NCBI GenBank assembly: GCA_963725495.1
Contig: CAVRYM010000005.1
Coordinates: forward strand, 723,617 to 787,616
Origin: an uncultured Alphaproteobacteria bacterium
GTDB lineage: Bacteria > Pseudomonadota > Alphaproteobacteria > Rhizobiales > Xanthobacteraceae
DNA: 64,000 nucleotides
Reading direction: 5' to 3'
Both the position numbers and the translations under genes were made by a program. The notes below the pieces were generated by a model, which saw only the letters and a program-made list of their open reading frames with translations, was not told where the DNA came from and searched no databases. Below are positions 53,559-62,457 of the stretch, in pieces (within the stretch, counting starts at the first letter, position 1; each line of letters opens with the position of its first letter).

Positions 53559-53724
53559 CTAGTGGTCCGATTCTAGCATTCGCATCTTGGTTCGGCAGGC
53601 TCTCATGCGAATGCTAGAATTAAAGGACCACTAGCAACTATAGTTCAAGTGAAGCTTTGGATTTGACATTCGCTTCGCGAGCTAACGGCTGGGTGGGTAG
53701 CGAATGTCAAATCCGCTTCACTAG
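53559..53724 (+). repeat. Double-hairpin repeat element (about 166 nt), copy 1
   Basis: Hairpin 1 is ctagtggtccgattctagcattcgcat...atgcgaatgctagaatt.aaaggaccactag. Hairpin 2 is gtgaagctttggatttgacattcgct...agcgaatgtcaaatccgcttcac. Copy 2 lies at 62289-62457. Confidence 0.85.
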
Positions 53725-55580
53725 CGCGCCGCGCACGAGCGCCGCATAAATCCGCTCGGACAAGGTTTTCGGCCGCTCAAGACCGAGCCGCGCGAGGCGC
53801 TCGTCGTCCTTTGGCGCGGCCGAGAAGAGGCCGCGCAGCAACAAGGCCGGAAGCTCCCGCCACGATGCAGATCTCAATGTCGCCAGGGCCGGGAGAAGCC
53901 GCTGCTCAACTTCGGTGAAATCGCTGCCGAACGGGAATGCCGGCAACAGGCCAGCATCGGCGGCCGACCGCATGTTCCGTTCGATCACTTCGGGAAAATT
54001 GCCGCGCGCCGATTTTGGCAGCTCGAACGCGTCCTCGATCTTGCCCGCATCCTTGGCCTGCCGCAGCAAGTCGTCCTGGAAACGCGAGTCGGCGATCGAA
54101 AGCATCGCGGCGATCACGTCGCGGTCGCTTTTGCCGCGGATGTTGGCGATGCCGTATTCGGTGATGATGATGTCGCGCAGATGCCGCGGAATGGTGGTGT
54201 GGCCGTAGCGCCAGCGGATGTTCGACGTCAGCTTGCCGTTGGCGTAACGCGTCGCGTGCAGAATGAGCGCCGAGCGCGCGCCTTCGAGCGCGAAACCCTG
54301 GGCGACGAAATTATATTGGCCGCCGACGCCGGAGACGATGCGGCCGTCGTCGAGGCCGTCCGAGATCACGTCGCCGAGAAGCGTCGCCATCATTGCGTCG
54401 TTGAGGAAACGCGCGCCAACGCGCGCGCGCCGCTTTTCCGCCTCGTCGCCGTAGAGTTCGTTGACGTAGGAGATCGCGGTCATGCCGAATTTCTTGATTT
54501 CCTCACGCTTCATCTCGCGCAGGCTGCGGGTGAACGCGCGCGATCCGAGGAAGAATCCGGCGTGCAGCACCGCGCCGTTGACTTCGCGCTTGAGAATTCC
54601 GGCACGATAGAGATCGAGCATGCCCTCGACGAACATTTCCGAGCAGCCGTAGACGCCATCGTCGAATGGCTCGCAATGAACGTCGGGGTCGCGCGCGTGA
54701 TCGTAGCCGAGCTGCGTGAGCAGCCGGCAATATTCTTCGCCGTTGTGATGCCGGAGCACCAGCGCCTGCGCCACAGCGTCGCCGAGCGATCCGATGCCGA
54801 TCTGCAACGTGCCGCCGTCGAGGACGAGGCTGGCGGCATGCAGTCCGGCCGCATAATCCGACAGCGAGACCGGCGCGCGCGGCGGCGCGAACAACGGAAA
54901 ATCGGTCGCCGGGCCGTCGAGCATCACGTCGAATTCCTCGGCCGCGATCGCCGCGTCGCCGGGCATGAATGGCAGCTCGGAATTGAGTCTGACCGGCGAA
55001 CACAAAATCGGTGCGGCCTTCGCGGCGCAGCCGCAGCAGATCGAGCGTCAGGTCAGGATTGCAGCTCAGACTGTAGGGGAGCGGCGTCTCCTCTGCGCGG
55101 TGGGCGACAAGTTGCGCGACGACATTGACGCCGCGGGCGAGCACCGCTTGGAGCGCGTGGCTGTAATTGGCGCAAATGTAGTGCTGCTGCGCGTAAGGCG
55201 AGCCGAGCCAGCGCCCGGCGAGGAGGAAGAACTCGTTGACTTCGACGTTCGGCGGCAGCTTGCCGGCGCGGATCGCCGCCGCGTAATCGAGCGCCGGATA
55301 GCCTCCGAACGCGCGTTGCGAGATAGGATCGAAAAAACGCCGTTCGAGCTCACTGCTCGGCGCGCGGCGCTTCCAGCGTCAATCCGGTGAAGATGGTGAG
55401 CTTGAGCGAAGGATCGGCGGCTGCCCTGGCGAACAGCGCATTGGCGATATGGTTGGCCTTACCGAGGCCGAGCGGCAAGGCGAGCATGATCGTCTTGCCG
55501 ACCTTTTCGATGATCGCGTCGGCAATCCGCGCCGGGTCGTCGAAAAATCGCGGCGCCGCTGCCGCAGGCGAATGGATCAT
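53707..55580 (-). pseudogene. Acetyl-CoA hydrolase/transferase family protein with two +1 frameshifts (about 55356 and about 54987)
   Basis: Three consecutive frames carry MIHSPAAAAPRFFDD...LTLEAPRAE, then SELERRFFDPISQRAFGGYPALDY...FVFAGQ, then NSELPFMPGDAAIAAEEF... to the stop at 53707. Confidence 0.8.
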
Positions 55581-57697
55581 CGCGGGATGTCCCAGCCCGG
55601 ATCGGGCTGGAAGCGCGCTCCGTATTGATCGGCGAGCCGCTTGAGCGTGTCGCGCACGTCAGCAAAACCGCGGGTGTGCGCATAGTGCATCGGTCCGCCG
55701 CGGAACGGCGCGAAGCCGGTGGCAAAGATCATCGCGCCATCGAGGATCTGCTCATCGGCGACCACGCCCTCGCGCAGGCAGGTCATGCAGGCATCGAGCA
55801 TCGGCAGGATGAGCCGGTCGGCTGCATCCGGCGGCGGCGCGGCGTCTTCGTGCGATTTGACGGCATGGCCGTCCTTCCAGTCGTAGAGGCCCTTGCCGGT
55901 CTTCTTGCCGAGTTCGCCCTTTGCCACCTTGTCCTTGAGCCATTGCGGCGCGTCCGGCATCTCGCGATGCAGACTGCCGCGCAGCATCTCGGCGACGTGC
56001 AGGCAGATGTCGAGCCCGACTTCATCGGCCAGTTCGATCGGTCCCATCGGCATGCCGAAATCGACCGCGGCCTTGTCGATGGTCTCCCTTTTCATGCCGC
56101 CGTCGAGCATGACCAAAGCTTCGAGCAGATAGGGCGTGAGCGCGCGATTGACCAAAAAGCCGGGCGCGCTTTTGACTGGCGCCGGCAGGCGGTCGATGCG
56201 GCCGAGGAAGGCGCGCGCATCGGCGAGCACGTCGGGCGCGACCTGGTCGTGGCTCACCACCTCGACGAGCTGCATGCGCGACACCGGATTGAAGAAATGG
56301 ATGCCGACGAGCCGCTCCGGCCGCGGCAGGCTCTCGCGCAATTGTTCGAGCGGAATGCTCGATGTGTTGCTGGCCAGAATCGCGCTCGGCTTCATCTTCG
56401 GCTCGATGCCGGCGAAGATTTTGCGCTTGAGTTCGAGATTTTCCGGCACCGCCTCGATGATCAGGTCGGCGCCTGCCACGCCGTCGCCGTTGAGATCAGG
56501 AACGAGGCGGTCGAGCGCATCGCGGGCGCGCAGGCGGTCGTCGCGGCCGATCCTGGCGTAGAGCTCGGCGGCGCGTTTGACGGCGCCGCCGATCGCATTC
56601 TGGCTGGTGTCGCCGAGCGTGACGACAAATCCGTTCCAGGCACACCAGGCGGCGATGTCGCCGCCCATGGTGCCGGCGCCAATGACGTGAATACGTTGTC
56701 CGCCCCACACGCCGCCGGCGAGGTTTTTCAGATTGTCGCGCAAGTAGAACACGCGCACAAGATTCTGCGCGGTGTCGCCGACCAGAAGCTTGGCGAACGA
56801 CGCGATCTCTGCTTTCTGCATGGCCTCGGCATCGCCGCCATGCTCGACCCAAAGGTCAATCAACGCGTAGGGGGCTGGATAGTGCGCGCGCGGCGCCCGC
56901 TTGGCGGCTTCGCTCGCCATCCGCGCGGCAAAGAGACGCCGCGCCGGCTTGGCGTTGAGCAGCGAGCCGACGACACCTTGCTTGGCCTTGACCATCTCGC
57001 CGCTGACGGCGGAGCGCACGGCGGCGCGCACGTGGCGCTCCTGCGTGACTGCATCGACCAGGCCCAGCCGCCGCGCGCCTCGCGGCCGCTCGCTCCTCCC
57101 GGTGAGCATCATGGTCATCGCCTTGAGCGGATCGATCAGGCGCGGCAGCCGCACCGTGCCACCGAGGCCGGGATGCAGTCCAAGCTGCACCTCGGGAAAG
57201 CCGAAGCTCGCGCCGTCGATGGCGATGCGAAAATCGCAGGCGAGCGCCAGTTCGAGCCCGCCGCCGAGGCAATAGCCGTGGATCACCGCGACCGTCACCG
57301 ATGGCAGCCGATCGAGCCGGTCAAGCACTGCGTGGCCGCGCGCAAGTGTCGCCTCGATCTGCGCCACATCGGTGACGCCGCGGAATTGCGCGATGTCGGC
57401 GCCGGCGATGAAACCTGCTGGCTTCGCCGAGCGGATGACCAAGCCCCACGGCGGATTTTGCTCGAGCTTTTCCAGAACCGCGTCGAGTTCGGTCAGCACA
57501 TCTTCCGACAACGTGTTGGCGCTTGCGTCTTTTTTGTCGAACAGGAGCCAGACGGTGCCGTCCTCGTCGGTGCGCATGCGCCAATGCGTCCAGGGGCTCG
57601 GCTCGGCGGCCGGATCGTCGATCGCGAACGGTCCGAGCTCGAGATTGCGCTTGCCGAGAATGGCGAGCACGGGCTTGGGATTTGGCAATGTTTTCAT
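55577..57697 (-). CDS. Bifunctional enoyl-CoA hydratase / 3-hydroxyacyl-CoA dehydrogenase (FadJ/FadB-like)
   Basis: Crotonase N-terminus (GFIAGADI, GGGLELALACD) and NAD-binding VIGAGTMGGDIA. 706 aa. Confidence 0.9.
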   Translation of the reverse strand: MKTLPNPKPVLAILGKRNLELGPFAIDDPAAEPSPWTHWRMRTDEDGTVWLLFDKKDASANTLSEDVLTELDAVLEKLEQNPPWGLVIRSAKPAGFIAGADIAQFRGVTDVAQIEATLARGHAVLDRLDRLPSVTVAVIHGYCLGGGLELALACDFRIAIDGASFGFPEVQLGLHPGLGGTVRLPRLIDPLKAMTMMLTGRSERPRGARRLGLVDAVTQERHVRAAVRSAVSGEMVKAKQGVVGSLLNAKPARRLFAARMASEAAKRAPRAHYPAPYALIDLWVEHGGDAEAMQKAEIASFAKLLVGDTAQNLVRVFYLRDNLKNLAGGVWGGQRIHVIGAGTMGGDIAAWCAWNGFVVTLGDTSQNAIGGAVKRAAELYARIGRDDRLRARDALDRLVPDLNGDGVAGADLIIEAVPENLELKRKIFAGIEPKMKPSAILASNTSSIPLEQLRESLPRPERLVGIHFFNPVSRMQLVEVVSHDQVAPDVLADARAFLGRIDRLPAPVKSAPGFLVNRALTPYLLEALVMLDGGMKRETIDKAAVDFGMPMGPIELADEVGLDICLHVAEMLRGSLHREMPDAPQWLKDKVAKGELGKKTGKGLYDWKDGHAVKSHEDAAPPPDAADRLILPMLDACMTCLREGVVADEQILDGAMIFATGFAPFRGGPMHYAHTRGFADVRDTLKRLADQYGARFQPDPGWDIPR

Positions 57698-62282: not shown

Positions 62283-62288
62283 GGCGCG

Positions 62289-62457
62289 CTAGTGGTCCGA
62301 TTCTAACATTCGCATCCCGCTCAGGCAGGCTCGCATGCGAATGTTGGAATCAAAAGGACCACTAGCAAATATAAGTGCTAGTGGAGCTTTTGGATTTGAC
62401 ATTCGCTACTCGAGTTCGCGGCTTGGTGGGTAGCGAATGTCAAATCCGCTCCACTAG
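62289..62457 (+). repeat. Double-hairpin repeat element (about 169 nt), copy 2
   Basis: Same order and orientation as copy 1. Stem differences between the copies are compensated. Confidence 0.85.

Follow-up and report, generated by a model that had tools for sequence, protein, structure and literature searches.

Two hairpin repeats beside a beta-oxidation block are probably independent insertions of a mobile, non-coding DNA repeat

Why would an 8.7-kb block of beta-oxidation genes lie between two co-oriented copies of the same long hairpin repeat? The question arose in a 64,000-nt stretch of contig CAVRYM010000005.1 from an uncultured member of the Xanthobacteraceae (the window). A sequence-only reading of the window described the two copies as a MITE-like or structured-RNA element and suggested that they might mediate excision or duplication of the block or act as strong terminators. 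We argue that the two elements most likely inserted independently, as copies of a mobile DNA repeat that is non-autonomous and non-coding, and that their bracketing of the block is coincidental.

The two copies and the genes between them

Table 1. Repeats and genes around the beta-oxidation block (positions in the window)
Feature	Position	Strand	Remarks
Copy 1, double-hairpin repeat	53559..53724	+	166 nt; H1 53559-53634, linker ~53635-53646, H2 ~53647-53724
Bracketed block, five genes	53707..62282	.	syntenic in element-free congeners
Hydrolase, last 5 codons (LVKRI) and TGA stop	53707..53724	minus	read from copy 1 arm H2
Acetyl-CoA hydrolase/transferase-like gene	53707-55005	minus	Pfam AcetylCoA_hyd_C
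fadJ-like gene	55577-57697	minus	Pfam ECH+3HCDH
Thiolase gene	57711-58901	minus	Pfam thiolase
fadE-like ACDH gene	58994-61291	minus	Pfam ACDH_C
YiiX-like C92 amidase gene	61437-62282	plus	Pfam Peptidase_C92 (YiiX)
Copy 2, double-hairpin repeat	62289..62457	+	169 nt
Smaller CTAG-bounded hairpin CTAGAACGCATCC...GGATGCGTTCTAG	62518..62559	.	separate low-copy repeat, ~6 genome sites
Thioesterase gene	62556-63254	minus	

Both copies are where the sequence-only reading had placed them (Table 1), and they are co-oriented and 88% identical, with a few single-base indels. Copy 2 starts 6 nt 3' of the stop codon of the YiiX-like gene. The element is ~167 nt long and consists of two hairpins of ~75-80 nt, each bounded by CTAG, in the order CTAG-hairpin 1-CTAG, an AT-rich linker of 12-13 nt, and CTAG-hairpin 2-CTAG. 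Each stem has 26 bp plus a fixed 3-nt bulge in the inner arm. The presence of two long hairpins per copy is borne out by folding energies of -89.6 and -108.1 kcal/mol for copies 1 and 2 (z = -10 and -14 relative to dinucleotide shuffles); none of 200 shuffles folded equally well. The half-site CTAGTGG...ACATTCGC is present in 4 of 4 arms, and the outer ends are inverted (ctagtgg...ccactag), as had been claimed. The outer arms CTAGTGGTCCGATT..ACATTCGC and GCGAATGT..ATCCGCTCCACTAG form terminal inverted repeats. The differences between the copies that were said to be paired across the stems are real: in hairpin 1, copy 1 has tagcattc/gaatgcta and copy 2 has taacattc/gaatgttg, and in hairpin 2, gtgaagc/gcttcac corresponds to gtggagc/gctccac. 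The exception is the final g of gaatgttg, which is an uncompensated G.T wobble that is private to copy 2.

The names that had been given to the genes of the block agree with their Pfam matches. Copy 1 does supply the 3' end of the hydrolase gene, but it supplies 5 codons and the stop rather than the 6 codons first counted. Orthologous hydrolases continue after ...RGAL with 5-7 different residues, and here these are replaced by LVKRI-stop.

Could the two copies be direct repeats that delimit a module able to move or be excised? They point the same way around a functionally coherent set of genes, and the left junction of the block is a synteny breakpoint within the genus. But in relatives from the same genus (five for the copy-1 junction and six for the copy-2 junction, from G003, G004, G007, G012, G013, and G018), the block and its right-hand neighbour have the same gene order, and neither junction holds an element. 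The modest identity of the two copies also argues against a module, as does their membership in different subfamilies. Copy 2 belongs to a young subfamily and shares 96-99.4% identity with six further copies in the genome; copy 1 represents an old, solitary lineage, and no other copy matches it at more than 90% identity. Because one subfamily is recent and the other lineage is old, the insertions took place at different times. Furthermore, the spacing of the copies is as expected by chance: there are 4 pairs of repeats within 10 kb of each other versus 2.45 expected (P = 0.23). We find it hardly credible that the block is a module of this kind. Variable presence of the block, a common origin of the two copies, and a special tie of the element to the block are not supported; there are ~36 copies or fragments across the genome. 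The bracketing is a coincidence, and the block is no part of the mobile element. The local effects are limited to the rewritten C-terminus of the hydrolase and a pair of 167-bp direct repeats, which could at most support a rare homologous deletion. For this locus, then, the consequences are slight, as the elements are ordinary insertions.

A dispersed family whose arms stay complementary

This genome has ~30 full copies (163-170 bp), along with ~6 that are partial or divergent. Of the two findings that were together to refute the sequence-only reading, the family shows one, being scattered, multi-copy, and unassociated with the block, but not the other, as its covariation is strongly supported. 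Across the family, 97.7% of cells pair, and in 41 of 52 pairs both sides vary; no shuffle (0 of 500) reached the observed covariation. Compensated double changes that are private to a single copy are also far too common, with 6 observed versus ~0.07 expected. Copy 1 has two such pair changes, and its compensated variant had no match among 150 congeners. All of this supports the earlier claim that selection or repair actively maintains the pairing.

What is being maintained? Wobble pairs are not enriched: there are 25 G.U cells as compared to 68 mismatched cells, no more than would be expected from neutral mutation. What is constrained therefore seems to be the complementarity of the DNA and not an RNA fold. 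The alternative is a functional structured RNA or an RNA-level signal: the repeat might be a mobile sRNA gene, a hairpin for mRNA stabilisation or processing, or, at operon ends, a terminator or insulator. The hairpins are very stable, they covary strongly, their loops are partly conserved, and many copies lie at the 3' ends of genes; there is also a weak promoter-like match within copy 1. However, the pairs are almost purely Watson-Crick, and with such near-perfect palindromes both strands are equivalent. The repeat has no preferred orientation with respect to neighbouring transcription (6:5 in tandem contexts), and the genes on either side are divergent for 11 of 29 copies. An Rfam scan of the region gave only chance matches below the threshold (at most 25 bits). 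A role as a canonical terminator is not supported, as neither hairpin is followed by a T-run and the orientation is random. We consider an RNA-level function to be very improbable.

The other half of the original description, a MITE-like element, fares better. The repeat is short, non-coding, multi-copy, and dispersed, and it has terminal inverted repeats. It is strictly intergenic or at gene ends, often on or beside stop codons: none of the 30 copies is inside an ORF, and no ORF spans any copy. In two of three frames the repeat has stops of its own, and for 9 of 30 copies the stop codon of an adjacent gene comes from the repeat. In other words, it rewrites the 3' ends of genes, and about a third of the copies in this genome do so.

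The loop of hairpin 2 contains a motif, ACGAR-N3-GCSGC, which is conserved across subfamilies whose stems differ. A model in which a transposase simply binds the terminal inverted repeats leaves this motif unaccounted for.

CTAG targets and the search for an enzyme

The hairpins have CTAG feet, apart from rare GTAG variants that are each seen in single copies, and every copy is flanked by CTAG (TA). This tetramer is scarce in the genome: it occurs 2,103 times versus 17,379 expected, or about 8-fold under-representation. Where copies are neighbours, whether tandem or inverted, they overlap by exactly 4 nt, which is one shared CTAG, and a nested copy sits precisely at a resident hairpin's CTAG. 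An IS630 is located at the TA of an inner CTAG and has TA on both flanks. These junctions show that new copies insert at the CTAG with which a resident copy ends, and the two neighbours then have a single CTAG between them. The single shared CTAG is compatible with duplication of either TA or CTAG, and we infer that insertion duplicates one or the other. Precise empty sites were not recovered from congeners (the nearest genomes are ~78% identical) or from one metagenome scan with a flank word. Where the terminal CTAG has changed, the inner arm sometimes shows the matching change, which would be unexpected if those bases came only from the target.

The reading that we prefer, independent insertions of a non-autonomous repeat, would work as follows. 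A transposase acting in trans would make a 2-nt staggered cut at the TA within CTAG, and the outer arm of each hairpin would serve as a terminal inverted repeat. Enzymes of the IS630/Tc1 type and of the IS5/IS427(IS711) type make a 2-nt staggered cut at TA. Both types are present in this genome, with CTAG-flanked ends, and are candidates. The two arms of each hairpin would be kept complementary at the DNA level, either by intramolecular templated correction of the quasi-palindrome or by selection for the single-stranded hairpin form during mobility.

We searched for the enzyme in several ways. A whole-genome scan for half-sites revealed no parent IS whose ends match those of the repeat: outside of the short elements, there were no isolated half-sites 0.8-2.5 kb apart. 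Clustering of ORFs across 117 foreign loci gave no recurrent transposase adjoining the copies. The genome's IS630-like and IS427-like elements both end in CTAG, but their ends are CTAGAGCA... and CTAGGTCAC..., respectively, and neither is CTAGTGG.... We rejected IS630 as the partner: the ends of 80 related IS630 loci read CTAGAGC or CTAAAGC rather than CTAGTGG, and IS630 is found in 8 of 21 repeat-bearing genomes and 40 of 130 repeat-free genomes. One locus that appeared to be an IS with MITE ends (L195) turned out to be an IS630 that had inserted into a MITE. The IS427/IS711-like element is a lead only, as its ends differ and its co-occurrence with the repeat is weak (13 of 21 repeat-bearing genomes versus 57 of 130 repeat-free genomes). 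Close homologues are found in three repeat-rich genomes and also in two genomes without the repeat.

A different kind of enzyme is imaginable. Each hairpin might be a REPIN-like doublet of inverted REP-type sites that is moved as single-stranded DNA by a RAYT (an HUH Y1 transposase), and the compensatory changes might reflect selection on the single-stranded hairpin. Compensated double changes in both arms have been reported for REPINs. Like the REPINs and BIMEs of Pseudomonas and E. coli, the repeat consists of long hairpins of two inverted half-sites, forms modular mosaics, is intergenic, and has tens of copies. Also, each added unit brings one CTAG, as would be expected if it inserted 3' of a tetranucleotide and duplicated nothing. 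On the other hand, the repeat lacks the GTAG head and its stems are much longer than in REPINs. The genome has a single Y1_Tnp gene, a RAYT (G000:C2:1053011-1053538), but the REP on its flanks is a different one with a GTAG head (GTAGGGTGGGCAAAG..., ~29 copies), and we rejected this RAYT as the partner. Y1_Tnp does not co-occur with the repeat either: among genomes of the order, it is found in 4 of 21 that bear the repeat and 28 of 130 that do not, and it is missing from most of the high-copy genomes (G093, G099, G105, G145, G146, G156, and G208). Nor do the copies show the strand bias that is predicted for IS200/IS605-type transposition of single-stranded DNA, as their orientation is independent of the direction of replication (12:8 versus 6:4, odds ratio 1.0). 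We think that a REPIN-like origin is quite improbable.

Another thought is that a dedicated enzyme or host process recognises the hairpin: it would read the loop motif of hairpin 2 and the 3-nt bulge, cut at CTAG, and need folded single-stranded DNA. This seems unlikely, yet we give it some weight. If it were true, then the complementarity of the arms would be selected or templated copy by copy, and this would be a new repeat-plus-enzyme system in the Hyphomicrobiales, distinct from both RAYT/REPIN and the classical DDE MITEs. In any case, the family is a clean natural example in which to study how the two arms of a long palindrome remain complementary (templated correction versus selection), and it bears on which enzyme moves CTAG-targeting hairpin repeats.

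Distribution and resemblance to known repeats

Within the Hyphomicrobiales, the element is a mobile and intergenic repeat that is abundant but patchy in related soil bacteria. An exact 27-mer from it is found in more than 117 contigs from Bradyrhizobium, Afipia, Nitrobacter, Pseudolabrys, Rhodoplanes, and Xanthobacteraceae MAGs. Matches of 70-78% identity are found in plasmids of Aminobacter, Martelella, Rhizobium, and Ochrobactrum (the match in an Ochrobactrum replicon is 73.5% over 115 nt), and Agrobacterium vitis has partial matches to hairpin 1 only. The covariance model matches 21 of the 151 genomes that we sampled, and these represent at least 14 GTDB families of the order. The repeat will confound predictions of sRNAs, terminators, and "island boundaries." Searching the literature for words from the element's sequence turned up no relevant paper.

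Several alphaproteobacterial repeats are of a similar kind. RIME was reportedly described by Osteras in 1995, and Bru-RS1 and Bru-RS2 are said to have been described by Halling and Bricker in 1994. The Bru-RS repeats are 103-105 bp long. Our repeat is ~167 bp. CIR1-CIR4, the CcrM-associated intergenic repeats of Caulobacter, are ~110 bp (Chen & Shapiro 2003, summarised by Delihas, PMC2229807). In that summary's description, the CIR repeats are strictly intergenic and multi-copy; their two long inverted repeats make up two arms with a linker between them, the termini have TA, and there are GANTC (CcrM) sites and multiple stops in the reading frames. Our repeat is likewise alphaproteobacterial and multi-copy, with two linked stem-loop arms, intergenic locations, TA termini, and multiple stops. 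It is longer than either the CIR or the Bru-RS repeats. It also differs from what is described in the location of GANTC: in ~46 of 56 aligned copies, GATTC/GAATC is part of the hairpin 1 stems rather than of a terminal loop, and it is missing from several subfamilies. An indirect link in sequence is the Ochrobactrum match mentioned above. Judged by described features, CIR, RIME, and Bru-RS are among the closest known systems, along with REPINs and the TA-duplicating MITEs.

The MITEs that duplicate TA (Correia/NEMIS of Neisseria, and those derived from IS630/Tc1 and IS5/IS427) are similar in being non-coding elements of 100-170 bp, with terminal inverted repeats, TA termini, a CTAG/YTAR-type target, insertion at gene ends, and presumed mobilisation in trans. 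But those have one end-to-end stem, whereas our repeat has two separate hairpins, each of which is a complete inverted pair; and for our repeat, we found no parent IS with matching ends, and loop motifs are conserved.

Finally, the double-hairpin repeat is not the only CTAG-bounded hairpin near the block. The smaller one, just beyond copy 2, overlaps the stop codon of the thioesterase gene (Table 1).

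The double-hairpin repeat and the beta-oxidation block

The sequence-only reading placed two co-oriented copies of one element around the beta-oxidation genes, and this is borne out: copies 1 and 2 are 88% identical across 166-169 nt, with a few single-base indels. The element is indeed made of two long hairpins, H1 and H2, with folding energies of -89.6 kcal/mol (copy 1) and -108.1 kcal/mol (copy 2; z = -10 and -14 against dinucleotide-preserving shuffles, with 0 of 200 equalling them). Each hairpin has a 3-nt bulge, always in the inner arm and at an invariant position. Pfam confirms the gene names given to the block (hydrolase, fadJ, thiolase, fadE, and YiiX). 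Copy 1 supplies the end of the hydrolase gene as claimed, but not its last 6 codons: H2 provides 5 codons (LVKRI) plus the stop, where orthologues have ...RGAL and then 5-7 residues other than LVKRI.

Features of the repeat, candidate enzymes, and other repeats (C2, C5, and C6 are contigs of the window's genome, G000)
Feature	Location	Sequence or description
Copy 1	window 53559-53724
Copy 2	window 62289-62457
H1 left arm		CTAG-TGGTCC-GATTCTAACATTCGC, then loop of ~22 nt
H1 right arm		GCGAATGTTAGAATC-AAA-GGACCA-CTAG
Linker between H1 and H2		CAAnTATAAGTnC
H2 left arm		CTAG-TGGAGC-TTT-GGATTTGACATTCGC, then loop of ~26 nt
H2 right arm		GCGAATGTCAAATCC-GCTCCA-CTAG
RAYT-type Y1 transposase gene	C2:1052900-1053600 (L148 1340-1980)	175 aa, HUH and Y motifs
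IS630-family element, single copy	C5:640596-641645 approx. (L149 980-2029)	two ORFs (HTH, DDE_3); ends CTAGAGCA...
IS5/IS427-group IS, two copies	C5:694715-695560 and C2:651978-652816	839-846 bp; ends CTAGGTCAC...GTGACCTAG
Mini-element of IS427-like ends alone	G109:C11:1601500-1601545 (L267)	~35 bp; TTAGGTCCCG...GGGTCCGTGACCTAG
Degenerate older repeat fragment	C6:792440-792528 (L023 about 1410-1500)	directly beside young copy at C6:792529
Smaller CTAG-bounded hairpin	window 62518-62559	CTAGAACGCATCC-loop-GGATGCGTTCTAG
Palindromic REP copies	window 701-779 and 32211-32280	GTAGCCCGGATGAGCGAAGCG...CCGGG
Tandem direct repeats	window 13059-13194	six of 17 bp, GCGTACTCAAGATTTCG

The repeats had also been thought to be tied to the block or to delimit it, which our results do not support. 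The genome (5.15 Mb in 7 contigs, 63% G+C) has 29-30 copies of full length and about 6 more that are divergent or partial, and pairs of copies less than 10 kb apart are not in excess (4 observed vs. 2.45 expected, P = 0.23). Furthermore, the block and its right-hand neighbor are syntenic in relatives of the same genus, whose coding DNA is about 78% identical; only the left-hand neighbor differs, and we found no element at the copy-1 junction in five relatives or at the copy-2 junction in six. So the bracketing is coincidental, and the repeats do not delimit the block. Copy 2 is part of a young subfamily, sharing 96-99.4% identity with six other copies in the genome; no other copy is more than 90% identical to copy 1. 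As for the proposal that these direct repeats could excise or duplicate the block, rare homologous deletion is the most they would allow; identical stretches between them reach about 26 nt at the longest. For the beta-oxidation locus, the repeat means little; the interest of the family lies in which enzyme moves it and how its arms stay paired.

The exact 27-mer from H1 is present on more than 117 contigs, from Bradyrhizobium, Afipia, Nitrobacter, Pseudolabrys, Rhodoplanes, and many Xanthobacteraceae or Hyphomicrobiales MAGs. Copies that are 70-78% identical are found in replicons of Aminobacter, Martelella, Rhizobium, and Ochrobactrum, and partial matches (H1 only) in Agrobacterium vitis. A covariance model built from 56 copies and run on 151 sampled genomes of the order identified full-length copies in 21 of them, from at least 14 GTDB families, and these genomes often hold 15-18 or more copies each. 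The element has no match in Rfam. Its patchy, multi-copy spread is that of a mobile element, which fits the earlier description of it as MITE-like.

By description, the repeat is of a type already known among alphaproteobacterial hairpin repeats. The CIR repeats of Caulobacter and Brucella are described (PMC2229807) as two arms and a linker with TA termini and GANTC sites, strictly intergenic and of unknown mobility; our repeat matches in its arms and linker, termini, and intergenic location. It also recalls RIME and Bru-RS; REPINs, but without a RAYT association; and TA-type MITEs such as Correia elements, but no parent IS was found. Unlike the known families, it is 167 bp rather than about 105-110 bp, and its GANTC sites, present in most copies but absent from several subfamilies, are in the stems.

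Pairing of the arms

Stem differences between copies 1 and 2 were correctly described as paired across the arms, and the claim that this pairing is maintained is supported by an alignment of 56 copies. Standard pairs fill 97.7% of cells; shuffles reach 86.6%, and slid partners about 35%. Of the 52 pairs, 41 have changes on both sides (290 cells), and none of 500 shuffles matched any pairing measure. Subfamilies differ at many stem positions, yet their pairing stays perfect. Also, the 29 copies of the A-type subfamily in the genome contain 6 private compensated double substitutions, where independent hits would give about 0.07 (P about 1e-10). Two of the six are in copy 1. A search of 150 other genomes of the genus did not turn up its H1 variant, which suggests that compensation took place in a resident copy or in a lineage outside the sample.

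G.U occupies 25 cells and mismatches 68, which is no enrichment and is about the level expected from neutral mutation. Hence what is constrained looks to be complementarity of the DNA, not pairing of an RNA. There are hints that the folded form is recognized: the H2 loop motif ACGAR-N3-GCSGC persists across subfamilies with differing stems (its GC.GC is in 41 of 56 copies), H1 loops have a related YGCGGCA-like word, the bulge is fixed, and the inner arm in some cases mirrors a change in the outermost CTAG. An alternative explanation for the pairing is selection for a folded single-stranded form. The most economical putative mechanism is templated correction of the quasi-palindrome, in which intramolecular strand switching or hairpin repair would keep the arms paired.

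CTAG target sites and candidate enzymes

All 30 of 30 copies in the genome are intergenic or overlap gene ends only. Nine of the 30 supply a neighboring gene's stop codon, by the TAG of the terminal CTAG (7 flanks) or by a stop within the element, 5 codons further in (3 flanks), and several others lie 1-6 nt from a stop codon. CTAG bounds every hairpin even though the genome has about 8-fold less of it than expected (2,103 sites vs. 17,379). Where two elements adjoin, they always have one CTAG in common, be they tandem, head-to-head, or from different subfamilies (at C2:1967845/1968040 and likewise in foreign loci). In five genomes from the search of the order, the overlap between neighboring matches is exactly 4 nt. 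At one locus (L121), a complete A-type copy lies exactly at the CTAG that opens H2 of a resident C-type copy; at another (L195), an IS630 flanked by TA occupies the TA of an inner CTAG. The target of IS630 is the TA within CTAG; IS711, an IS427-group element, generates a duplication of TA at YTAR. The genome itself has one IS630-like copy and two IS427-like copies whose ends are flanked by CTAG. The repeat behaves like TA-duplicating transposons that prefer CTAG/YTAR; its own target duplication is inferred. Different kinds of TA-duplicating elements seem to accumulate at the same CTAG sites.

We also note that the mini-element of IS427-like ends abuts a double-hairpin copy, with TA common to both. 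Separately, the old fragment of the double-hairpin repeat on C6 adjoins a young copy, so that site was used repeatedly.

We found no recurrent transposase beside repeat copies in 117 foreign loci, and none of three candidates has a clear link to the repeat. The sole Y1_Tnp gene in the genome (RAYT) is flanked by a different, GTAG-headed REP, and Y1_Tnp is present in 4 of 21 repeat-bearing genomes vs. 28 of 130 without the repeat. The flanking REPs (GTAGGGTGGGCAAAG..., about 29 matches in the genome) are inverted and on both sides, which looks like a classical REP-RAYT pair that is unrelated to our repeat. The ends of the IS630-like and IS427-like elements differ from those of the repeat, and they co-occur with it in 8 of 21 genomes (vs. 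40 of 130 without it) and 13 of 21 (vs. 57 of 130), respectively. Related IS630 copies elsewhere have ends TA-GAGC or TA-AAGC, with a variable base preceding TA. The two frames of the IS427-like element join at an A-rich slippery site, and its target is of the TA/YTAR type, like that of IS711. Homologues of 67-75% identity are in three repeat-rich genomes of the order, but two genomes that lack the repeat have close homologues as well. Copy orientation bears no relation to GC skew or to neighboring transcription, and the latter does not support the suggested role as a terminator or insulator.

Other repeats in the window

The smaller hairpin overlaps the thioesterase stop codon. With the same arms present at about 6 genomic sites, it counts as a further CTAG-type repeat of low copy number. 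The REP copies have about 17 half-site matches in the genome, and a repeat scan identified the tandem 17-bp repeats.
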